From the NCBI GenBank assembly GCA_964275585.1, contig CAXYCJ010000011.1, forward strand, positions 16,270 to 80,269: 64,000 bases of DNA. Direction: 5' to 3'. The notes below the pieces were generated by a model, which did no database searches, had not been told where the DNA came from, and saw only the letters and a program-made list of their open reading frames with translations. This stretch comes from an uncultured SAR86 cluster bacterium. Lineage in GTDB: Bacteria; Pseudomonadota; Gammaproteobacteria; Magnimaribacterales; D2472. Positions 6,258 through 46,846 of this stretch are shown piece by piece (the stretch's first letter is position 1; the number at the start of each line of letters is the position of its first letter). A program made the position numbers and the translations under genes.

Positions 6258-7438
6258 TATCGAGTCCTAGGCATGAGCAAGCCGGCCATGGCAATAATAT
6301 CTCTTTGAACTTCGTTAGTGCCACCGCCAAAGGTAAGGATAGATGCAGTCCTGTACATTCTCTCGAGTTTTGCATTTAATACAGACAGCTCGGAGTCATT
6401 TTTTAACAGACTAAGCTCTCCCATTATCTCCATTAACAGCCTGTATGCTTCTATAAAAAATTCAGAGCCGTACACCTTAGCAACAGAGGCTTCAGCCATG
6501 TTTAGTTGACCTGATTCCATGATCCATGTTTGTTTCCAACAAATAAGCTTTAAGGCTTCAACTCCAGCATAAACCTGTGCAAAGTTATGTTTGACCCACG
6601 AGAGATCTGCTAAAGACTGATCATTATTAATCTTGGTGGTCTCTGCAAGCTTAAGTACGTTTCTGTAAAGCTCTTCAACTGGACCGTGATTAACTAAAGC
6701 CAAACGCTCTAAATTAAGCTGACTGGTTATAAGCGACCAGCCGTGATTGATTTCGCCAACAAGGTTTGAATCTGGAACACGAATGTTGTCGTAAAAAGTA
6801 GCGTTGGTTCTTACATCGCCTAAGGTATTAATTGCTGACATTGAAAAACCAGGGTCGTCGGTTGGCACGATGAACATTGAAATGCCTTTGTGATTCTTGG
6901 CTTCAAAATCTGTTCTTGCTGCCAGCCAAATATAGTCCGAGAAGTTTGCCAAGCTGGTCCACATTTTTTGACCGTTAATTAAATAGCCATCGGGCTCTTT
7001 GATTGCTTTGGTTTGCAGCGAAGCCAAATCTGTTCCTGAGTTAGGTTCTGAATAGCCAATGCCAAAAATAAGTTCGCCTCGAAGAATCTTGGTGGCTATT
7101 TCCTCTTTAGCCCAATCAGATCCGTGTTCTGCAATCATGGGACCGACTGATTCAGTTGTTAGAAAAGGGAAGGGGAAACCGGTTCGCATCACAGTCTCTA
7201 CAAAGATGTATTGCTCTATAGGACTTAATTCTTTACCACCCAATTCTTTTTTCCAACTCAAGCCTATCCAACCATCTGCACCCATGGTACGCATAGCCTT
7301 TTTAAATTCAGGCCCGCCGCCTTCAAAGTGTTTGGGATTATTTAACTCTGTTCTTAGTGCAGGCGTTAATAAGCCTTCAAAGTATTCTTGAAGTTCTGCT
7401 TTTAATTTAGCTTGTTTTGTATTTAGTTGTATTAACAT
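6257..7438 (-). CDS. Acyl-CoA dehydrogenase, FadE26/FadE29-like subunit
   Basis: IGYSEPNSGTDLASL, NGQKMWTSLA, QLNLERLAL, TFGGGTNEVQRDII. Start moved to ATG 7438. Confidence 0.9.
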   Translation of the reverse strand: MLIQLNTKQAKLKAELQEYFEGLLTPALRTELNNPKHFEGGGPEFKKAMRTMGADGWIGLSWKKELGGKELSPIEQYIFVETVMRTGFPFPFLTTESVGPMIAEHGSDWAKEEIATKILRGELIFGIGYSEPNSGTDLASLQTKAIKEPDGYLINGQKMWTSLANFSDYIWLAARTDFEAKNHKGISMFIVPTDDPGFSMSAINTLGDVRTNATFYDNIRVPDSNLVGEINHGWSLITSQLNLERLALVNHGPVEELYRNVLKLAETTKINNDQSLADLSWVKHNFAQVYAGVEALKLICWKQTWIMESGQLNMAEASVAKVYGSEFFIEAYRLLMEIMGELSLLKNDSELSVLNAKLERMYRTASILTFGGGTNEVQRDIIAMAGLLMPRTR

Positions 7439-7498
7439 CTCAACTAGTAGTATCTCATTTTGTATTCTCAATTCAATATCTTGGTGTATTATTTAGTC

Positions 7499-7669
7499 AT
7501 GGCTAGTTACTCCCGAACAATGGATTTCCTTCATCAAAAACTTTTGCAAGCAAGAACAAAAGACCAAGAGGACAAGATAGTTAACTGGATGCTTGCTGAA
7601 GCACAATTAAAGCAGGCTGCAGAAAAGAACAATCCAAATAGCAGGTCAGATATGATGAAAATAAAATAG
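7499..7669 (+). CDS. Small hypothetical protein (56 aa)
   Basis: ATG 7499, MASYSRTMDFLHQKLLQ..., co-oriented just upstream of the envelope operon. Confidence 0.4.
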   Translation: MASYSRTMDFLHQKLLQARTKDQEDKIVNWMLAEAQLKQAAEKNNPNSRSDMMKIK

Positions 7670-7686
7670 GGTATGTCTAAATATAA

Positions 7687-8238
7687 ATGAAAAACATCCT
7701 CCTCATGTTGATGGTCTTTGGGAGCTTTGGAGCCTTAGGACTAGATTCCACATCTAATAACTCCGAAGGATGTGACAATACAAATTTTGAGATTGATAAA
7801 CCAGAATACGCAGAGACTGAAGAAGAGCGTGTGGCAAGGTTAAATCAAGAATTGATGGCTGCCTTAAATCAATTTGATAGATGTTTTGATACTTTGAATA
7901 AATCTACATCTTCAAGCGACTCCTCAAAGTCTAATAATAGTAATTCCTCCTCATCAATCGCTAGTAATACCGCATCAGGCAATGAGCCAATCACAACTCA
8001 AGAACAACCTCTCAATACTGCTCCTGATCAAAATTCTATAAATAATACTTCAGTACCCATAGAAGATATTCCTGGAGACAATGGCTCAATTCCATCTGAT
8101 ACACCTTACGATCCTAGTGATGATAGAACAGCAAGGCAACTTTGGGATGAAGCTAATGCTACCAAAGATCCTAAGCTACGGGAGTTATATTTTGACGGAT
8201 ACAGGAAATACAAAGGAGCGCAAAAGAATGATGGATAG
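7687..8238 (+). CDS. Secreted hypothetical protein, Ser/Asn-rich linker, helical C-terminus
   Basis: Signal peptide MKNILLMLMVFGSFGALG; Cys pair; C-terminal DDRTARQLWDEANATKDPKLRELYFDGYRKYK. Confidence 0.8.
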   Translation: MKNILLMLMVFGSFGALGLDSTSNNSEGCDNTNFEIDKPEYAETEEERVARLNQELMAALNQFDRCFDTLNKSTSSSDSSKSNNSNSSSSIASNTASGNEPITTQEQPLNTAPDQNSINNTSVPIEDIPGDNGSIPSDTPYDPSDDRTARQLWDEANATKDPKLRELYFDGYRKYKGAQKNDG

Positions 8239-8303
8239 TAATTAATTGCTTAATAGAAATTACTATATTAATCTTTAAGCATATAAAGCAAATTATTAAA
8301 ATC

Positions 8304-9505
8304 ATGAATCCCAAATACTTAACATTAATTCTCTTAGCATTTGTCGCTAGTTGTTCCACGACATCTGGCGTTGGCCCACAATATCAGTCTGGAGGTGAAA
8401 AGGTGGTAATTGAAAATGCAGAACCTTTTGATGTTGCTATTGCCATTTTTGACCCCCGGATTATCAGACCAATCATCATACGGTGAAAAGGGTGTTTGGC
8501 CTGAATTAAGACGAGCTGAATCTATGTATATGGCTGTGCATTTAAGAGATGTTCTTGCAAAATCTGAATCCTATGGGGCGGTAAGGGTTGTACCAAATCT
8601 ATTATCTAGCTCTGATGTATACATCAGTGCTCAGATAATTCAATCAAATGGTGAAGATGTTGCTATCAAAATTAAGGTAATTGATTCAACAGGCAAGACA
8701 TGGATTTCAAAAAAATATTCGCACAGAGTAAAAACCCATTACATTTAACAACCCCAGAAATAAAAATTCCAAAGGGGTCTTACTGTTAGATCCTTACGAA
8801 CCAATTTATCAAAAAATTAATTCAGATATTGCCAAATATATTAAAAGAAATGTAAAGACAAAAAAAGCTGATTTAATAAACACTGTTACAGATATTCGTT
8901 ATGCTCAGAATTTTTCACCAGATGCATTTACCGATATTCTTAGCAAAAGAAATAATAGCTATAAACTGAATGGAAAACCTGATCCAGACGACCCTATGAT
9001 GCTAAGAATAAAAAATATCCAATACCGTGACCAGATGTTTATAGATAACATGCAAATTCACTATAATAGCTTTGCTTCCGATATGAGCCTTAGTTATAAG
9101 ATTTGGCAAGAACAGTCCTTTGCTGAATCTAAGTCAGCTAGAGAAGCAGCTAGCGCTGCATTTTGGCAAGGTGTTGCAGGTGCAGTTGTTTTAGCAGCTA
9201 CTGTTTCTGCTGCTGGAGATTCTGACTCATATGAGGGCGCAAGAAATACAGCTATTGTTGGTGGAGCAGTTGCAGGATCATTATTTAACAGCAGTTTTAA
9301 AAGTAGCTCAGAAGCAAAAATTCACCGTGACACATTAAATGAGATATCTGAATCGATTGATGGTAGTTTATCTCCTAGCGTTATAGAAATGGAAGACATG
9401 ACCGTAACTATAACCGGAACTGCTGATGAGCAAACTGCTCAATGGAAAGAAATTCTTATAAAGATATATAACGCCGAAACCGAGAAAACAAAAACCTTCC
9501 TATAA
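8304..9505 (+). CDS. Lipoprotein of about 399 aa, split by two +1 frameshifts (probably sequencing errors)
   Basis: Lipobox FVASC. Removing one C at 8453-8457 and one base near 8735-8743 joins ORFs 8304, 8410 and 8996; the frame between 8744 and 8996 is open. Confidence 0.8.
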
Positions 9506-38660: not shown

Positions 38661-40909
38661 TGTTTAGTAAAGAATTAGAACAATCCATCGCAAATTTATT
38701 TGATCAGGCACAAGATCAAAATCTAGAATACCTAACCATTGAGCATTTGCTACTTATGCTCCTTTCTGATTACGATGTAATGCAAGCCCTTGAAAGTAAC
38801 GATGTAAATTTATCTACTTTACGAAGTAATCTAGAAGAACATGTTCGAGACAATACTCCAGTTAAGGTTGAATCAAAGAAGCCTGTTCAACCAACCCTTG
38901 GTTTCCAGCGAGTTCTCCAAAGAGCTGTATTTCACGTTCAATCTTCTGGCAAGGGCGTTGTAAAGCCTATAAATTTATTGGTAGCTATATTCTCTGAAAA
39001 AGAATCTCATTCAGTGTACTTGCTCTCCAAGCAAGGTATTGGAAGGCTTGATATTGTTTCTTATATTTCGCATGGCCAAACTTCAGCCCCACAAGAGTCA
39101 GAAGCAAGTCTTGATCAAAATATTCCTCAAGATGAAGATACTCCAAGAAGTGATCTAGAGTTCTTGATTAATCTTAATGAATTAGCAGCATCTAAAAAAA
39201 TTGATAAATTAATTGGTAGGTCTGATGAGATAGAGCGAATTGTTCAGATTCTTGCTCGAAGAACTAAAAATAATCCATTGCTAGTAGGTGAATCCGGGGT
39301 AGGGAAGACTGCTATAGCAGAAGGGTTGGCGCACTTATTGAATGATAAAGCTATTCCAGATTTTCTTCATGAATCAACACTGTTTTCTCTCGATATTGGC
39401 GCATTAATTGCAGGAACAAAATATCGAGGTGACTTTGAAAAACGTCTTAAATCGGTATTAAAGTACTTAGACGATCAAACTAACCCAATTTTGTTTATTG
39501 ATGAAATTCATACAATCATAGGAGCAGGCTCTGCGTCGGGTGGAAGTTTAGATGTTTCTAATTTATTAAAACCAGCCCTCGGTAAAGGAAAATTACGCTG
39601 CATTGGATCGACTACATTCCAAGAATATCGAGGTGTTTTTAACCAAAATCAAGCATTATCGCGGAGATTTCAAAAAATTGATGTTGTAGAACCTTCGGTA
39701 GAGGACTGTATATTAATTTTAGATGGCCTCAAAGGTAATTATGAGGATCATCACAACGTTAAGTACTCAAATGAATCTATAAATTCTGCAGTCAATCTTT
39801 CTAAGAGATTTTTGAATGATAGGTTTCTTCCAGATAAAGCAATTGATTTGATTGATGAAACAGGAGCTTTAATGAATATTTCTCGAAAAAATTCAAAGAA
39901 AATTACCGTTAAACAAACTGACATTGAAAAAACTATATCTAAGATTTCTAAAATTCCAGAACAAACAATTTCTAGCCAGGAATCAATTAATTTACAAAAA
40001 CTTGAGTCTGATTTAAAAACTGTAATCTTTGGTCAAGATCCAGCAATTCTTAGCTTGGTTAATGCAATCAAACTTTCTAGGGCAGGGCTTAGAGATGATA
40101 ACAAAACAATTGGATCCTTTTTATTCGCAGGTCCAACTGGAGTAGGTAAAACAGAAATTACAACCCAACTTGCAACAATGATGGGGATTGAACTTGTTAG
40201 ATTTGATATGTCAGAGTATATGGAGAGACACACAGTGTCTAGGCTAATCGGCGCTCCTCCTGGTTACGTTGGTTTTGATCAAGGCGGCTTATTAACTGAA
40301 GCGGTTGTTCAGAATCCACACTGTGTTTTACTTTTGGATGAAATTGAAAAAGCGCACCCTGATATTTTCAATCTTCTGCTACAAATCATGGACTCAGGTG
40401 TTTTGACAGATAATAATGGCAGAAAGGCTGATTTTAGGAATGTAATAGTCGTTATGACTACTAACGCGGGTGCTGAGTTGCTAGAAAAGAAAACAATTGG
40501 TTTTAGCGACCAATCAAATGAATCTGATGCATTGCTGTCACTGAAGAAACTTTTCTCACCAGAGTTTAGAAATAGGCTAGATGAGATAATTCAATTCAAT
40601 TATCTACCGATTGAGGTAATCCTTTCAATTGTTGATAAATTCCTTACCAAACTTCAAGCTCAACTTGATGCAAGAAATGTGGAACTTATATATTCTAAAA
40701 AGGTCCTCAATTGGATAGCTAAAAATGGATACAACAAAGAAATGGGCGCAAGACCAATGGAAAGGTTTATAACAAATAAGATAAAAAAACCGCTTGTTGA
40801 TAAAGTGTTATTTGGTGATTTGAGTAAAGGCGGTCAGATTAAGGTAGATCTTAACAAGAATGAGATCAATTTTAGCGCTAAAAAGAAGATAGTTAAGTCT
40901 AGGGCTTAA
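38660..40909 (+). CDS. clpA: ATP-dependent Clp protease ATPase ClpA
   Basis: [20 protein letters not shown]; Walker A motifs GESGVGKT and GPTGVGKT. Confidence 0.97.
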
Positions 40910-41124
40910 CGACCTCTAAAAGTTATCCTGCCTTTGGTTAGGTCATACGGAGTCATTTCAACTTTAACTTTGTCGCCTGTTAATATCCTGATGTAATGCT
41001 TGCGCATCTTGCCGGATATGTGGGCCTCGATAATATGATCGTTCTCTAATTTAACTTTAAAGGTTGTATTAGGGAGAGTCTCTATAACTTCCCCTTCGAA
41101 TTCTAAATTATCTTCTTTGGCCAT
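40906..41124 (-). CDS. infA: Translation initiation factor IF-1
   Basis: MAKED...LPNTTFKV...HISGKMR...[12 protein letters not shown]. Confidence 0.97.
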
Positions 41125-41186
41125 GATCACATTTTAACTTAAATACCAATGGATTGAGCATATATACATCAATTAATATATCTATA

Positions 41187-41214
41187 ATTTAACATAATAT
41201 ATATTATGCGAAGT
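41187..41214 (-). other. Chromosomal dif site (XerC/XerD recombination site)
   Basis: Minus strand ACTTCGCATAA-TATATA-TTATGTTAAAT. The XerD arm is identical to E. coli dif; the XerC arm has the typical CGCATAA; 6-bp spacer; intergenic. Confidence 0.92.
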
Positions 41215-41317
41215 TAATTATGTTCTTTCTTCATATTATCCACTCTCTATGCCCTTTGTTGCATGGTGTTAAAACAACAAACGTGTTAATTAGTACTTTT
41301 ATAAAGGCCTTATAGAT

Positions 41318-41354
41318 ATCAAAAGGTGTACCAAGTTTTTGCTCCCCTTTTGAT
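41318..41354 (-). terminator. Possible hairpin/terminator after the MORN gene
   Basis: ATCAAAAGG...CCTTTTGAT 9-bp inverted repeat 2 nt past the stop codon; long loop. Confidence 0.3.
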
Positions 41355-41356
41355 GC

Positions 41357-42046
41357 TCAATCATCCATGAGTTTGAGAACACATTGGGCAAATCCATCAG
41401 AGCCTTTTGTCAGACCCATGTCTTCGCAGATTTTAGGGACAAACTCACCATTTAGATAATACCCAGTTTGACTTGATCCATCAGCCCAGGTGTAGGTTCC
41501 TAGACCATCTTTCTTGCCGTCTTTGTACTCACCGATGAATTTATCGCCACTGGCATGATAGTAAGCGCCCTGACCATGTTTCTTGTCGTCTTTGTACTCA
41601 CCCACGAATTTGTCTCCAGTCCACTGGCTTTCTGAACCAAAAATATATGTGGCCTGACCATTTTTATTGCCGTCTTTCCATTCGCCAACGTATTTTTCGC
41701 CATCGTCATAACTGTAAGTGCCTTGGCCATGTTTCTTGCCGTCTTTCCATTCACCGACGTATTTCTCACCATCAGGAAAGGTGTAAGTGCCCTGTCCATG
41801 CATCTTGCCGTCTTTGTACTCACCGACGTATTTATCTCCAGCCCATTGGCTTTTTGGACCATAAATATATATGCCCTGTCCGTGTCTTTTATCGTCTTTC
41901 CATTCACCCACGTATTTTGAGCCACTGTCCCATTCATAAGCACCATAACAATTATCAAAGTAACCAGATGACGGGCAGTCAGGCAAGGCAGCTGCATCGC
42001 CTACATAAAAAAGAATTATTAGTGCTGTTAGGTAGTGTTTTTTCAT
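41357..42046 (-). CDS. Secreted MORN-repeat protein
   Basis: Signal peptide, LPDCP...DNCYG, about 7 YVGEWKDGKKHGQGTY repeats; start moved to ATG 42046. Confidence 0.92.
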   Translation of the reverse strand: MKKHYLTALIILFYVGDAAALPDCPSSGYFDNCYGAYEWDSGSKYVGEWKDDKRHGQGIYIYGPKSQWAGDKYVGEYKDGKMHGQGTYTFPDGEKYVGEWKDGKKHGQGTYSYDDGEKYVGEWKDGNKNGQATYIFGSESQWTGDKFVGEYKDDKKHGQGAYYHASGDKFIGEYKDGKKDGLGTYTWADGSSQTGYYLNGEFVPKICEDMGLTKGSDGFAQCVLKLMDD

Positions 42047-42280
42047 AATCTTATCTTTATTGCGTTTTCGAGAATTGTCAAATGTATATGCGCGCAAATT
42101 TAACGAAATTAACCATATATATCGATTATAAATATCATAAGGATTACCTAGTTTTTTGATATGCTCAAAATTAAAGATTAGCTTAACAGAAGCCTTTATA
42201 CTTTGATTTAAGGCTTTAAAGTTATATTTTTGTGATCCTGGAACTACAGCACCACCAGGAACTTCAGAGATCTTTGGGAC

Positions 42281-42308
42281 AATTAACGAGCTAAATATTA
42301 TGCGAAGT
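42281..42308 (-). other. dif-like site 2 (perfect XerC arm, degenerate XerD arm)
   Basis: + strand AATTAACGAGC-TAAATA-TTATGCGAAGT, same orientation as dif. Confidence 0.7.
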
Positions 42309-42329
42309 AATATATGTTTTGACTAGCCC

Positions 42330-42454
42330 TCACCCTCTTAATAGATCTATAAAATATCCTTTGCTATCAATAACTGTTTTTTCAATAGTGAAGCCTTTAG
42401 AATGACCATTTATGAAATCAATTATAAGTCCGGCATATTCTGGACCAGCTTCTT
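42330..42454 (-). pseudogene. Remnant 3' end of a second haloalkane dehalogenase allele
   Basis: Encodes EAGPEYAGLIIDFINGHSKGFTIEKTVIDSKGYFIDLLRG*; 42406-42454 matches 42504-42552 at 45/49 nt. Confidence 0.8.
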
Positions 42455-43570
42455 ATCCATTTTAAAAATGACTTTTTGCTCTTTAGAAAATCCCCTAGGA
42501 TTGCCATTAATAAAGTCAATTATAAGTCCGGCATATTCAGGACCAGCTTCTTCCTGCAAAAAATGACCTGGGCCTTTAATAACAATTTCTTGAGCAGTTG
42601 GAATTCTTTTTAATATTTTGACCAATCGAGGATTGTTCCCAGTAACGGGGTCATTATCACTGTTTGCAATTAAAAATGGTTTATCCCATTTTTCTAAAAC
42701 CTCTCTAAAAGCTTTTTCATTTTTTCTTAATTCACTTGGAATTAAATACGGAAAAATTTGTGCTCCAGCTTTATATGTTGCATTAGGATATGGCGCTTCA
42801 TAAGCTGCCTTTTCAGCATCAGATACAGATCCTAGTGTCTGCATAACTCCTCCAACATCGATATTATCTGCATATCTAGAATATCTAATCCAGCTAGTAA
42901 AACTATTGCCACCAACAAATTCTTCCCATGTGGCTGGACCTTGCAACCATATAGTAAGTTTAAATATAGGCCCCATAACAAAACTTCTTAAATCATTAAA
43001 AAAACCCCTACCAAGGGCCATTAAACCAGTGTTTGATGCTATCACTCTTGCAAACCTATCTGGCTCCTCTGCTATGACTCTCAGTCCAACCATTCCACCC
43101 CAATCATGAATATGAGCAGTAATATTCTGCAAATCGAGTTCAACGATTAATTGAGTCATCTTATCTACATGCATTTGATGCGAATAATCTTCTATTGAGA
43201 TGTATTTGTCAGATTTTCCAAATCCAACCATGTCAGGAGCTATCACCCTATACCCTGCTTCCGTAAGAGTAGGAATCATTTTTCTAAATAAATAACTCCA
43301 AGCAGGCTCGCCATGAAGTAAAAATATAATTTCTCCATCTTTAGGGCCTTCATCTAAATAATGAATGCGAGTATCACCGATAGTTAAATAATTCTCTTCA
43401 AATGGGTAATCTTTTAGATCTATAAAACGTTTCTCTGGTGTTCTTAATATGCCTGGAGCAACTAAATTAAACCTATCATAGTTAACGTTAACTTCTGAAT
43501 TTCTTGAGTATTGAAAGATCCCTATGCAAAAAATTGTGATGAAAAATAAAATTGAAATTAACTTATTCAT
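42422..43570 (-). CDS. Haloalkane dehalogenase family hydrolase with N-terminal hydrophobic anchor
   Basis: LRTPEKRF, LHGEPAWSYLFRKMIP, APDMVGFGKSDK, HDWGG, AYEAPYP, GHFLQE; GAGG RBS before ATG 43570. Confidence 0.9.
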   Translation of the reverse strand: MNKLISILFFITIFCIGIFQYSRNSEVNVNYDRFNLVAPGILRTPEKRFIDLKDYPFEENYLTIGDTRIHYLDEGPKDGEIIFLLHGEPAWSYLFRKMIPTLTEAGYRVIAPDMVGFGKSDKYISIEDYSHQMHVDKMTQLIVELDLQNITAHIHDWGGMVGLRVIAEEPDRFARVIASNTGLMALGRGFFNDLRSFVMGPIFKLTIWLQGPATWEEFVGGNSFTSWIRYSRYADNIDVGGVMQTLGSVSDAEKAAYEAPYPNATYKAGAQIFPYLIPSELRKNEKAFREVLEKWDKPFLIANSDNDPVTGNNPRLVKILKRIPTAQEIVIKGPGHFLQEEAGPEYAGLIIDFINGNPRGFSKEQKVIFKMDKKLVQNMPDL

Positions 43571-43601
43571 TTTAAACCTCTTATAAATAATTATAACAAC
43601 A

Positions 43602-43634
43602 TAAACTATTGACATATATAATGTCAATAGTTTA
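43602..43634. promoter_or_regulatory. Perfect 14-bp inverted repeat (operator-like) upstream of the dehalogenase gene
   Basis: TAAACTATTGACAT-ATATA-ATGTCAATAGTTTA; an extended -10 TGTTATAAT lies just downstream on the minus strand. Confidence 0.6.
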
Positions 43635-43667
43635 GATAACCTTAATTAGAAATATAAAATTAGTTTA

Positions 43668-43695
43668 ATTTACTTAAGTAGTTATTATGCGAAGT
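43668..43695 (-). other. dif-like site 3 (perfect XerC arm, degenerate XerD arm)
   Basis: + strand ATTTACTTAAG-TAGTTA-TTATGCGAAGT followed by TAATTA, as at site 1. Confidence 0.72.
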
Positions 43696-43783
43696 TAATT
43701 AAGCCATTTATTGAATTTATTCATCTCTATGCCCTTTCACTCGACGTTTTTAAAAGGGCTGAGGCTTTTTAGTCTTTCTAGCT

Positions 43784-45547
43784 TTAGTCATAATAGTCTG
43801 CAATTGATTGCAGATCTAATGAATGTTTAAGAGTTTCTTTTGTGCAGAGCTCATATGAACATTGAGCATAAAAGCTATCAATAAGAGTGCGTATGGAGGG
43901 AATTGAGAAATATTGAGAGTTGTTTAAATCTAAAGACCTATCTGCATCTATGATTTCATTGGCCAAAAAAATACCTTCTAGAAAATTATCAGCATAGCTT
44001 GATATCACAATATATTGACCTCTTGGCAACTCATTCATTACATAATGTCCAGCAATATTTGTTGATGCTTTGTATTTGGCGTTAGCAAATATGCTCATGG
44101 CTGATAGGCTGGCATCACTTGCATAGTCAAATTCCAAAATACGATATTTTTTTTCAAAATCTAAATCATCTGTTAATAATAAATCGTCCATAATACTCAG
44201 ATTATTTACGTCACACGAATTCACCGAATCCAATTTTTGGTTTGCGAAAGCTTGCGTTTCGTTTTGAGCAATTATTTCTTCTTGATGAGCTAAGCAGCTA
44301 TCTGCAGCACGTTTATCGTTTTGCATGGTTGCAATCAACGGGTTTTTTGCTAACTGAGATCTAATTCTTATAATTTCCTTTCTGGCTTTATTGATTATCT
44401 TTTCCTCTATATCAATAAGCTCGGTTTCTGCCCAATTTTGTTGGGCAGCAATAGCCCTAAAGCTAACCTCCATGCTCTCGTAAGTCACTACATCGCCAGT
44501 TTCAGTTCTCACTTCAGGCAAAACGGGAATAAAGCGACCAGAGTTAGGTAGAATTTTATAGTCCTTTGATAGATCTGGCACATCTAGATTAGGCCAATCA
44601 CTTTCATTGTTACCATATTTTTTGGACATTTTGAGACGTTGTGATGATGTAAGGCTCTTTCCATTACAATAATAGTTGTTCGGAGAGGCCACAGCAGAAG
44701 AGCCCGTTGGGAGAAAACTGCTTTTAGCAAATCCGAATTCATCAACACCAAATGATTTATTAATGCCGCTAGGTGCGATTTCAAGGTGTTGTATCATACT
44801 TCCTGGGTTATACCAGCACTCATAAAGACCAGAAGGATAATGAGATCCCACAGGATCACCTTCAACGTTATAAGTTTCAAGATATATGGGATCATTTAGT
44901 CTAATGTTGTATTGTGTATTATTACTAACAATCACATCAGCCTTAAACCCCTTACCCCTATTTGAACCTGTAGCATTCTTGTAAGAAAAAGTGATCTCTA
45001 TTCCTTTTGCAAAATTTTCATAAAGCTCATTCTCGCGCTCAGAAATTTTGGTGTTTAGTATTTTATTTAGATTTGACAAGCTAATAGTTGCCTGGTCGAT
45101 TTTTACCTGTTCTTGGTTAATTAAGCTAAGAAAACTATTTTGCTTCGCTTGGGCTATCACTTTAGAGTCTTCTGCATTTAAATCTATAATCGAGCAACTT
45201 CCATCTGGATCTGTTATTCCATTTGTTTTTGCTGATTCAATTGCTTGATCAATAGTATCTTGCCCTTCATCTAGGGCGGCGATCCAATTATTCGATGAAT
45301 TTTTGCAAAGCCCGCGTATTATAGTCGAATTCTTTTCTGCTAACTCTTCAATGGAACTTAGATACGCATCTATCAGAATGCTCTCAAGAGATTCACCTTC
45401 AATAAAAATAACCTGTTTGGCTGCAGCCGGTTGGGGTTTACCATCTCCCTTAACTAAAAATACATCCCCTTCAATATTAACTGGGCCCCCACATGCAGTT
45501 AATAAAGAGATGAAAAAAAGTGAAACTACAACTTTATAATTATTCAT
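43784..45547 (-). CDS. Hypothetical lipoprotein (587 aa)
   Basis: Lipobox LLTAC; coiled-coil-like segments; several Cys. Confidence 0.85.
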   Translation of the reverse strand: MNNYKVVVSLFFISLLTACGGPVNIEGDVFLVKGDGKPQPAAAKQVIFIEGESLESILIDAYLSSIEELAEKNSTIIRGLCKNSSNNWIAALDEGQDTIDQAIESAKTNGITDPDGSCSIIDLNAEDSKVIAQAKQNSFLSLINQEQVKIDQATISLSNLNKILNTKISERENELYENFAKGIEITFSYKNATGSNRGKGFKADVIVSNNTQYNIRLNDPIYLETYNVEGDPVGSHYPSGLYECWYNPGSMIQHLEIAPSGINKSFGVDEFGFAKSSFLPTGSSAVASPNNYYCNGKSLTSSQRLKMSKKYGNNESDWPNLDVPDLSKDYKILPNSGRFIPVLPEVRTETGDVVTYESMEVSFRAIAAQQNWAETELIDIEEKIINKARKEIIRIRSQLAKNPLIATMQNDKRAADSCLAHQEEIIAQNETQAFANQKLDSVNSCDVNNLSIMDDLLLTDDLDFEKKYRILEFDYASDASLSAMSIFANAKYKASTNIAGHYVMNELPRGQYIVISSYADNFLEGIFLANEIIDADRSLDLNNSQYFSIPSIRTLIDSFYAQCSYELCTKETLKHSLDLQSIADYYD

Positions 45548-45696
45548 TATTTATCTCCGATGTAAGAATATATAAACGTCACTAATATAACGACTCTATG
45601 CATCTAAAAATAACTAATATTTATTTATTTAGCAAGTGTTAGCAAATGAAGCATATTGAGAGAGTGAGCAGATCTTCTCAATTATAATATTGAAGG

Positions 45697-46062
45697 TTAA
45701 TCAGGCCATTGATATAGATTAACGTCTTCGTCACCAATCGTACCAGTGACATCACCATCATTCCAGTCATAGAGAGTGACATCCTTCTCCCCTATTGTTC
45801 CCCAAATATCTCCATCACCCCAATCTTTAAGGTTTACATCTTCATCGCCTATTGTTCCTGTAATTGTTCCATCGCCCCAGTCATATAGATTAACTTCGTC
45901 CTCTCCTATGCTTCCGGTGATGTCTCCATCACCCCACCCATAAAGCTGCACAGATTTATCACCAATAATTCCTGTTGTATCACCTTCATGAAAGCCAGAA
46001 ACAGACTCTTGAGCTGATAGAAAAAGAGGAACAATAATTAAGGTACGCATTAAACAATTCAT
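45697..46062 (-). CDS. Small acidic secreted protein with 19-aa tandem repeats
   Basis: LYxWGDGDITGTIGDEDVN x4 plus partial copies. Confidence 0.8.
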   Translation of the reverse strand: MNCLMRTLIIVPLFLSAQESVSGFHEGDTTGIIGDKSVQLYGWGDGDITGSIGEDEVNLYDWGDGTITGTIGDEDVNLKDWGDGDIWGTIGEKDVTLYDWNDGDVTGTIGDEDVNLYQWPD

Positions 46063-46186
46063 ATATACATACTAGCCTGGCAATCATAGATATATCAATA
46101 TATAAATTACTTATATTATCTTGCGAAAAAAATTAATTAAGTGAATAATATCTCAGTAAAGTAAATAATATTTAGAGGAGACTATT

Positions 46187-46846
46187 ATGGGATCTGGAAT
46201 TTTTAATTTAAAACATCCTACTTTTGCGAGAATACAAAAATTTTTAATTATATTCTTATGTGCAGTATTTACTTCAACTTCATTTGCAGCCACAGAGGTG
46301 CAAGCACCCTTTGGATTTAAGTGGGATCAAAAAGTATCGGACCTTCGGGCAAAAGGCTTTGATTCTACATGCAGTGATGCAACAGACCTTCCAATTAGAA
46401 TATGTAAATTCAGTGCCTCGCCAAAGAAGTTCTCCAAGGCGGATTTTTTCCAGGGTTTTTTTGTTCCTGGTGAGGGTCTTCAGAAAGTTACAATGCTCGG
46501 AAAGGATATTACAGATGACCCATATGGATCGGACGGAAAGGCCCAATATGAGGCATTAAAGACTTCGTTAACGAAAAAGTATGGTGCGCCCACAAACACC
46601 TATGAGTGGGAGGCTACAGAGCTATACAAAGATTCAGATGAGTTTTATGAATGTTTGAATTATCAATCATGCGGCAATCATACGGTCTACTGGATTGAGG
46701 GCATGGATGGTACGATAACTTTGAAGATTAAGGGTGTGAGCAGAGGTAAGGGGTATATACAATTGATCTATGAATCTCCAAGATGGAGTGACCTTCTTGA
46801 TCAACTCAGAGACCAAGAGACTGCTGGAGACGATGACAGTCTTTAA
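46187..46846 (+). CDS. Hypothetical secreted protein
   Basis: GAGGAG RBS; signal-like segment followed by APFGFKW; 219 aa. Confidence 0.8.
   Translation: MGSGIFNLKHPTFARIQKFLIIFLCAVFTSTSFAATEVQAPFGFKWDQKVSDLRAKGFDSTCSDATDLPIRICKFSASPKKFSKADFFQGFFVPGEGLQKVTMLGKDITDDPYGSDGKAQYEALKTSLTKKYGAPTNTYEWEATELYKDSDEFYECLNYQSCGNHTVYWIEGMDGTITLKIKGVSRGKGYIQLIYESPRWSDLLDQLRDQETAGDDDSL

Follow-up and report, generated by a model that had tools for sequence, protein, structure and literature searches.

A one-gene module at the chromosomal dif site of a SAR86 cluster bacterium, a probable miniature integrative element

Overall organization of the locus

The window analyzed here is a 64,000-nucleotide stretch from an uncultured SAR86 cluster bacterium (GenBank assembly GCA_964275585.1, contig CAXYCJ010000011.1, positions 16,270 to 80,269 of the forward strand), and all coordinates below are counted from its first letter. 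Between 41187 and 43695 it contains three 28-bp sites of the dif type in one orientation, which we refer to as S1, S2, and S3. We propose that the first of the two intervals between them, a short module carrying a gene for a secreted MORN-repeat protein, is a miniature integrative element placed at dif by the host XerC and XerD recombinases. An earlier note, made from the letters of the window, had read the locus as an integron-like array of captured gene cassettes, a reading that our analysis bears out only in part. In the order XerD arm, center, XerC arm, the sites are as follows.

41187–41214, + strand: S1, the chromosomal dif, on the infA side; ATTTAACATAA-TATATA-TTATGCGAAGT
42281–42308, + strand: S2, putative hybrid site combining an element's degenerate XerD-side arm and center with the chromosomal XerC arm, assigned from the alignment to sister species G047; AATTAACGAGC-TAAATA-TTATGCGAAGT, left arm with 5/11 mismatches
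43668–43695, + strand: S3, perfect XerC arm and degenerate XerD-side arm, read from the letters, at the left edge of a strain-specific island; ATTTACTTAAG-TAGTTA-TTATGCGAAGT, left arm with 5/11 mismatches

A check on the letters upholds the placement of the three sites in the earlier note, their common orientation, the identical XerC arm, and the degenerate XerD arms of S2 and S3. Compared with dif part by part, S2 agrees in 11/11 positions of the XerC arm, 5/6 of the center, and 6/11 of the XerD arm. The arms were named by a rule from the literature, that the better conserved 11-mer is XerD's; PMC2731167 describes the XerD 11-mer as better conserved and places within-group variation at the outer ends of the site. 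Among genomes of the same family, the left arm is nearly invariant and the right arm ends AAGT, AACT, AACC, or AATA.

The genome that holds the window (G000; 1,515,870 bases in 17 contigs, 87.5% complete) contains the exact 11-mer TTATGCGAAGT three times on the forward strand and never on the reverse, and every copy falls in this locus, within 2.5 kb. A wide scatter of the arm away from dif, which the earlier note had named as damaging to its reading, is thus not what we see. The reversed pattern, used as a control, occurs once in G000, and a relaxed scan of the genome found no further site with a perfect right arm. Since a window-only test allowing one mismatch does not discriminate (3 matches against 1.36 expected, with 13 of 100 shuffles reaching 3), the case rests on the genome-wide exact count and on the clustering within 2.5 kb. 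We regard the occurrence of three same-strand sites as confirmed, real, and non-random.

S1 is the chromosomal dif site

S1 is the chromosome's real dif. Of 101 sampled family genomes, 76 have a single copy of the full pattern (at most 2 mismatches) and none has two, and the cumulative GC skew in the window is at its maximum at 38–42 kb and declines thereafter. The genes to the right of dif face it because this is the leading-strand orientation there; the earlier note had correctly observed that they point toward dif, but this is what leading-strand bias predicts on this side of the terminus, given a skew turnover at about 41 kb. As the note had also stated, no recombinase or replication domain is recognized in the locus. 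The tyrosine recombinases of G000 amount to two PF00589 matches in all, both on other contigs. Its XerD scores 362 bits against TIGR02225 (cut-off 329.6), and its XerC-like protein scores 331.6 bits against TIGR02224, slightly below the cut-off of 335.15.

Between infA and dif, gene content varies from species to species in the loci compared (L035–L053), with a gene of about 105 aa, a hydrolase paralogue of 285–295 aa facing dif, and others, and no extra sites were detected on this left side in those loci. At least 8 of the 76 matching family contigs stop within 1.1 kb past the XerC arm, and assemblies probably under-represent the dif region.

Two side observations concern dif-like letters. 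Rfam gave two sub-threshold matches, one of them dif itself: 41187–41214 coincides exactly with a match to the Aggregatibacter small RNA JA03 (21.2 bits against a gathering score of 44), and a dif site may be part of the JA03 model. An inverted XerC-arm-like site, TAAAAAAGAAA-CNCTNA-TTATGCGAAA, occurs in four species (L035, L045, and L046, at 6.2–10.1 kb past dif, and G112:C1:101798) and may simply be coding sequence.

The MORN module appears as an exact insertion at dif

Between S1 and S2, which lie 1.09 kb apart, the module spans 41215–42291 and consists of the following parts.

41215–41340, + strand: XerC-side non-coding end, here called the X flank, recognized by likeness to the flank in metagenome contig L129; its start recurs after S3
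41310–41326, + strand: 17-nt motif, copy 1, TTATAGATATCAAAAGG; the motif class occurs twice in G000, both times in the module and on the same strand
41357–42049, − strand: cargo gene for a secreted MORN-repeat protein of 230 aa (PF02493, E 2.5e-40, six repeats)
42036–42280, + strand: XerD-side non-coding end with the cargo start codon, the upstream region, and motif copy 2 (42126–42142), recognized by likeness to L129

Evidence on the origin of the module comes from three sister species of the same genus (G047, G077, and G009), which have the clpS–clpA–infA left flank in common with the window and in which dif is followed directly by other genes. From 40787 to 41214 the window aligns to G047 and G077 through the last base of dif, and the alignment to G047 restarts at 42292, which is base 12 of S2 and also base 12 of G047's dif. 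None of the 20 relatives' loci compared has a match to the intervening 1,077 nt. Judging from these alignments, the MORN module is an exact insertion at dif, with the full dif toward infA and the hybrid site at its other end. Such breakpoint geometry is what a crossover within the site would be expected to give. The expectation that gene boundaries coincide with the sites therefore stands to the base for the first interval, and fails for the second, where the junctions lie inside the hydrolase gene described below.

Each interval holds a single gene, as the earlier note had said, S1–S2 that of the MORN-repeat protein and S2–S3 that of an alpha/beta hydrolase of the haloalkane dehalogenase subfamily. 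The MORN protein is the sole open reading frame (ORF) of its module, which encodes no recombinase, transfer function, or activation factor. Scans for promoter-like sites (9 against 11.6 expected) and terminator-like sites (3 against 1.6) were both uninformative.

The locus was compared with Logan contigs of four marine or seawater metagenome runs (X1, X3, X9, and X13), which come from different studies and are dated 2017–2025. S2 is bridged by contigs of X1, X9, and X13 and S3 by contigs of X1 and X9, with hundreds of letters on each side, and in those runs the module is preceded by 26–28 letters of canonical dif. One contig of X1 is without 84 nt inside the MORN repeats (window 41586–41671), so the cargo gene differs in repeat number between strains. 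Deletion joints (S1×S2, S2×S3, or S1×S3) and circular joints were not found in the contigs of the four runs, which drop rare variants; joints seen inside the MORN repeats were discarded as repeat artefacts.

A small family of modules with different cargo

A metagenome scan for sites whose left arm ends in a non-canonical base matched at least 120 loci, one of which, the 1,519-nt contig L129, carries a second complete module. It begins in the 3′ end of another left-flank gene and continues with a full dif, a homologous flank, other cargo, a homologous 5′ region, and a second site. The flank that follows its dif is 78.7% identical over 155 nt to the window's flank after S1, and its 5′ region is 88.7% identical over 293 nt to window 42036–42328, S2 included. 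In the place of the MORN gene stands an unrelated lipoprotein gene of 140 aa. The second site of L129, AGTTAACGGGC-TATATA-TTATGCGAAGT, has the same XerD-side arm type as S2 and agrees with dif in 11/11 positions of the XerC arm, 6/6 of the center, and 6/11 of the XerD arm. From base 12 of this site to the contig end, L129 is 83% (163/197) identical to G009 from base 12 of its dif. Taken together, the two loci show the same two non-coding ends enclosing different cargo at dif in two chromosomal contexts, with both outer flanks, left and right, differing between them. The same element is thus seen in independent genomic backgrounds, by way of one full and one partial additional member.

The partial member is contig L166. 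The 17-nt motif (TTATARATATCAWAAGG) is present twice in the G000 module, twice in that of L129, and once in the 246 nt visible of the partial module of L166. The left arm of the L166 site, GTTTGACTATG, is unlike that of S2, and from base 12 of the site onward L166 is 82% (373/454) identical to the dif and hydrolase of G077.

Two further genomes of the family have an extra site. G066 has a one-mismatch site 727 nt downstream of dif, with the hydrolase stop codon 11 nt further on, exactly the arrangement that G077 has after its dif, and the G066 module contains one lipoprotein gene. The right-hand breakpoint accordingly falls at base 12 of the 28-bp site in four backgrounds: the window, L129, L166, and G066. 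G014 has a second exact right arm 722 nt downstream of dif on the same strand. Its proximal full dif ends ..AACT and its distal site ..AAGT, the ending found in 4/4 other matching genomes of its genus, a swap that fits an element bringing its own XerC arm and a crossover inside the site. Pfam assigns no significant family to the cargo of L129, G066, or G014, and the one hit, for G066, is a chance-level match to DUF1179 (E 0.031, below cut-off).

Scans of genomes and viral contigs for the 17-nt motif returned chance matches, with 0 of 236 loci linked to dif among the matches listed, and with two probes taken from the module's 5′ end, IMG/VR viral contigs showed nothing beyond chance matches of 17–23 nt. 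Our verdict is that at least one interval is a genuine small IMEX (integrative mobile element exploiting Xer recombination), similar to TLC-phi and the gonococcal island and belonging to a small family with exchangeable cargo.

The hydrolase is the usual neighbor of dif

The second interval has a different history. Its features are the following.

42309–42454, − strand: copy B, a 146-nt leftover from the 3′ end of a second hydrolase allele that includes a stop codon of its own (71.7% to G047)
42422–43570, − strand: alpha/beta hydrolase, haloalkane-dehalogenase-like, with an altered, frame-shifted C-terminal tail (PF00561; NCBIfam NF002043)
43602–43634, no strand: palindrome with 14-bp arms upstream of the hydrolase; homology with G047 stops at 43633

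The hydrolase scores 314.9 bits against NF002043, the haloalkane dehalogenase subfamily (cut-off 265). In 7 of 14 informative same-genus loci it is the first gene after dif, and in at least four more the second, which speaks against its being a cassette. In these relatives the stop codon lies about 10–40 nt from the XerC arm. Nucleotide identity between the window's hydrolase and the dif-adjacent orthologues is 78–81%, and that of clpA and infA is about 80%.

The junctions of the gene also tell against capture at the sites, since the left one lies 146–190 nt inside its own 3′ end, away from S2. The copy B remnant matches the dif-proximal 3′ end of G047's hydrolase, and an 86-nt duplication with 79% identity (42369–42454 and 42467–42552, hydrolase 3′ end) puts the full gene out of frame over its last residues. 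Contigs of X1 and X13 bridge the junction between copy B and the hydrolase. In run X9, contigs over 42463–43366 are about 98% identical to the window (differing at 12 of 648 letters) at a depth of about 137–144, and the window-like flanks have a depth of about 13, roughly 10-fold below this hydrolase-body population. The deeper sequences part from the window at 42450–42471 and at about 43504–43548, inside the hydrolase gene.

This pattern looks like allele exchange by homologous or illegitimate recombination rather than by Xer. The hydrolase is the ancestral neighbor of dif, altered by recombination within the gene, and no simple captured cassette. The MORN interval, a gene-only insertion, thus fits what the earlier note had proposed, and repeated capture of cassettes at dif is not supported by the hydrolase interval.

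We also considered the hydrolase as an Xer cassette whose right-hand site has decayed in relatives, and by inspection found no convincing site upstream of it. Separately, 569 nt past dif in L042 (G070), ATTTATCATAA-TATATA is followed by a non-matching right arm. Possibly a decayed site, this stretch sits upstream of the hydrolase, with a small lipoprotein gene on one side and the remnant start of a second on the other.

S3 and the strain-specific island

Homology with relatives ends at 43633, 34 nt before S3, and restarts at about 47018 in a sulfotransferase gene. The resulting island of 3.4 kb, bounded by S3, contains genes for secreted proteins and lipoproteins; in the syntenic relatives G047, G077, and G066, two other genes stand in its place.

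43696–43740, + strand: X-type flank after S3, with TCTCTATGCCCTTT, defined by alignment to the X flank after S1
43784–45547, − strand: orphan lipoprotein of 587 aa, no Pfam or NCBIfam family
45697–46062, − strand: secreted repeat protein of 121 aa, with a homologue near dif in other strains
46187–46846, + strand: secreted orphan protein of 219 aa, the last gene of the strain-specific stretch, no Pfam family

The first 45 or so nucleotides after S1 and after S3 are alike, with a score of 86, where the best unrelated place of the genome reaches 52, and the exact 14-mer TCTCTATGCCCTTT follows S1 and S3 only and is present in 0 of the 138 other family genomes. The common flank and the 14-mer indicate that S3 is homologous to the attachment region of the module and is no chance arm, and a related module probably integrated at S3 now or in the past. 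We rejected TCTCTATGCCCTTT as a family-wide cassette signature, its exact copies being confined to G000 and its 1-mismatch matches elsewhere lying away from dif.

The lipoprotein after S3 is an orphan, as described in the earlier note, and an Atlas search with it returned nothing at 0.9 or above. For the 121-aa protein, contigs of X3 and X13 join the full dif (41214), through 25 letters, to an approximately 89% homologue of its gene (45695), so that in other strains this gene stands immediately beside dif; no homologue of the protein exists in the 31 further genomes of the genus. Candidate fourth sites at 46107–46141 (no strand) and 45670–45697 were rejected as insecure, since their scores of 32–50 are within the genome-wide background. 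The former scores 44–50 against S3 with its flanks, where the 99.99th percentile of the genome is 50.9 and unrelated places reach 50–52.

Proposed mechanism and alternative explanations

We consider it probable that S1–S2 is a miniature integrative element integrated at dif by host XerC/XerD, that S3 is a site of the same kind, and that the hydrolase is an ancestral neighbor. The analysis shows the sites, the exact breakpoints, a second family member with other cargo, and no further recombinase; we infer Xer catalysis, a circular intermediate, an order of events, and the passage of modules from cell to cell. The module would exist as a circle in which the two conserved non-coding ends are joined around an attachment site resembling dif, its XerC arm perfect, its center nearly identical, and its XerD-side arm degenerate. 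Host XerC/XerD would recombine this site with dif. The crossover would set the element's XerC arm beside the chromosomal XerD arm, giving a new full dif (S1), and the element's degenerate arm and center beside the old chromosomal XerC arm, giving the hybrid S2. If the gonococcal island is a guide, hybrids whose XerD arm is poor should resist excision driven by FtsK, so that insertions would persist and new ones would land on the infA side. The position of S3 distal to the hydrolase could have arisen by either of two routes: an excised hydrolase circle may have been captured again at dif, or a module may have integrated at a secondary site upstream of the hydrolase.

Several observations weigh against integration of the module by Xer. 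No Logan contig bridges S1 with at least 31 letters on both sides; contigs stop or start inside dif, so the join of infA to dif rests on the metagenome-assembled genome. Extra sites near dif occur in 3 of 139 family genomes (two in G000, one each in G014 and G066), and among 266 genomes of the order, which measure about 0.6–1.8 Mb, a site of the S2 type is found in G000 only. Outside G000, none of the 138 family genomes has a homologue of the module's 5′ end, and the module family comprises G000 with one full and one partial metagenome contig. The flanks of G014 gave nothing alignable against two other loci of its genus, which leaves the insertion there putative. The hydrolase junctions fall within the gene, and gene content to the left of dif differs between species without extra sites, so homologous recombination clearly takes part in remodelling the region as well. 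The module also encodes neither an activation factor nor a transfer function. The feature is thus rare in reference genomes, and one module alone is securely of this kind.

The strongest competitor, which we judge rather unlikely, is that the terminus is a flexible islet reshaped by homologous and illegitimate recombination once foreign DNA has been taken up, with dif and its short flank as no more than a conserved anchor and the extra sites as passive, Xer-inactive duplicates. Such an islet would account for the diverged 86-nt duplication, for the allele junctions inside the hydrolase, and for the X9 hydrolase body occurring in a roughly 10-fold deeper population with other flanks. Gene content varies on both sides of dif, mostly without extra sites, and the rarity of such sites in the family also suits it. 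It is harder to reconcile with four backgrounds that break at the same base, position 12 of the site, and with extra sites that all keep the XerC arm and center and lose the XerD arm, the known geometry of Xer integration products. The arm swap of G014 fits a crossover inside the site, and between the window and L129 the module ends are conserved while the outer flanks differ.

We find it improbable that the sites are scars of decayed phage-type IMEXs or satellites, with the single genes as left-over "moron" cargo. What lends this explanation some weight is L156, a phage-like metagenome contig with a primase-helicase, a lysozyme, PDDEXK nucleases, and a weak serine-recombinase-like ORF, which at 7027–7054, between genes, has the site ATTTAACGTGC-TATATA-TTATGCGAAGT with the same arm type as S2. 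IMG/VR contigs in three groups (L219/L312; L211/L228/L309; L300) likewise combine TATATA and TTATGCGAAGT with degenerate left arms. No phage gene or fragment is recognized from S1 to 46846, though, and the window and L129 have only the non-coding ends in common, with different cargo; the probes from the module's 5′ end met nothing beyond chance in IMG/VR.

That the repeated arm is a chance likeness in AT-rich intergenic DNA, or an artefact of assembly stringing together the after-dif sequences of several strains, is very improbable: the window-only shuffles and the frequent breaking of metagenome contigs at dif (the same 8 or more of 76) would allow it, but three exact copies in 1.52 Mb all lie within 2.5 kb on one strand, S2 and S3 have just 14–17 nt in common with S1, too little for mis-joining, and contigs of separate runs bridge S2 and S3.

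Related sites and wider significance

L151 is a contig of about 52% GC from another bacterium, where at 7239–8380 a full dif-like site with center TATCTA is followed 1,113 nt downstream by a second site with the same center and XerC arm, and more than 80 nt of flank are duplicated after both. An ORF starting with a helix-turn-helix domain (HTH_23, E 2.3e-7) lies between the two sites, and the whole resembles a small IMEX of an unrelated host. L156 could be a helper or an ancestor of the modules. The three IMG/VR groups are AT-rich, each with its own type of left arm and a conserved right flank, and are candidates for Xer-dependent phages infecting hosts that have this dif. Metagenome contig L189 has the same site as L219/L312, and L159 and L169 have sites related to those of the L300 group. 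Elsewhere in the window, GC climbs from about 0.37 to 0.49 between 58000 and 64000, at the window end.

Abundant marine oligotrophs have large flexible gene pools and almost no recognizable mobile elements. A 2026 preprint on Pelagibacterales leaves the mechanism of gene movement unresolved and sets XerC/XerD aside as housekeeping (10.64898/2026.10.07.757358). If the Xer-integrated module is what we take it to be, a gene-only unit that needs just the universal dimer-resolution machinery would be a minimal mobile element, and movement of single genes in marine oligotrophs would become testable at one defined locus. IMEX biology, so far a matter of phages and of large islands in pathogens, would then take in 1-kb cargo modules of free-living bacteria.

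A broader proposal, which we put forward only tentatively and regard as doubtful, is that in streamlined marine bacteria without transposases, integrases, or plasmids, dif serves as an integron-like capture platform for a family of promoter-bearing single-gene modules, with conserved non-coding ends and a dif mimic of the TLC-phi and gonococcal island type, that XerC/XerD integrate and stack with the newest at dif. Were this true, a platform with occasional excision and re-capture would explain the ancestral hydrolase between two sites, and capture at dif would be a major source of the turnover that surface and secreted proteins show near the terminus.

Comparison with known systems

The module has the hallmarks of an IMEX: it lies at the chromosomal dif, between a full dif and a hybrid site in direct orientation, and has no recombinase of its own, with XerC and XerD present in the host. 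It resembles TLC-phi and the gonococcal island in its place at dif, in its type of site, and in the full dif and hybrid left behind. S2 and L129 have the attachment site of TLC-phi type, with a conserved XerC arm and center and a divergent XerD arm. Elements of the TLC-phi and gonococcal island type measure 4.7–57 kb and have replication, transfer, or activation functions, unlike the module of 1.09 kb with its one cargo gene. It has no gene like that of the TLC-phi-type activation factor XafT, assigned to DUF3653, the MORN protein being its only product. Both TLC-phi and the gonococcal island, according to PMC5357621, integrate at dif by host XerC/XerD without an integrase of their own and leave one full dif and one direct hybrid site. 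The same source describes their attachment site as conserved in XerC arm and center and divergent in the XerD arm, the degenerate arm being thought to prevent excision activated by FtsK (PMC5357621).

Arrays at V. cholerae dif1 (TLC-phi, CTX-phi, RS1, and VGJ-phi) arise by successive integration, with hybrid sites between the units and the active dif at one end, according to PMC5357621. Those units are phages or satellites with genes of their own, unlike the single cargo genes here. Tandem IMEX arrays at V. cholerae dif1 are reportedly also the subject of a recent preprint (10.64898/2026.06.12.731946). As described in PMC9765430, LME-1 of Legionella carries a dif mimic, integrates at dif, and leaves a modified downstream site. 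It differs from the module in belonging to a single-recombinase XerL system and in being larger. The plasmid sites cer and psi carry accessory sequences next to the XerC arm, and the conserved flank of about 126 nt beside the XerC arm is placed like these and may play a comparable part.

With integron cassettes the module has in common one-gene units, a fixed platform site with, presumably, the newest unit nearest to it, and a site that travels with the unit. It differs in that no IntI with attI and Pc stands beside the array; the two Xer proteins of G000 score 83–134 bits against the integron-integrase models, far below the cut-offs of 265 and 435. Integron attC sites are imperfect palindromes that fold as single strands; the module ends are dif-like 28-mers, and the module, unlike an integron cassette, has a region upstream of its own cargo start, conserved between the window and L129. 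In the literature searched, subscription journals and supplements lying outside the search, we met no account of gene-only modules sitting at the chromosomal dif in marine oligotrophs.

The closest concept in print is the dif modules of Acinetobacter. There, as described in PMC12907356, sites alternate between C/D and D/C order, modules bounded by Xer sites form arrays, and a chromosomal "dif module island" of nine is described. Like these pdif and dif modules, the units here are small and cargo-only, bounded by Xer sites, without a recombinase of their own, and arrayed. The orientation does not alternate as it does in Acinetobacter: all three sites point the same way, starting from the main dif, and S2 and S3 have degenerate XerD arms. 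The Acinetobacter modules, by contrast, have sites with both arms recognizable and are located on plasmids or at a distance of over 1 Mb from the main dif. If our reading of the MORN module is correct, it would provide a conceptual link between IMEXs and the Acinetobacter dif modules.

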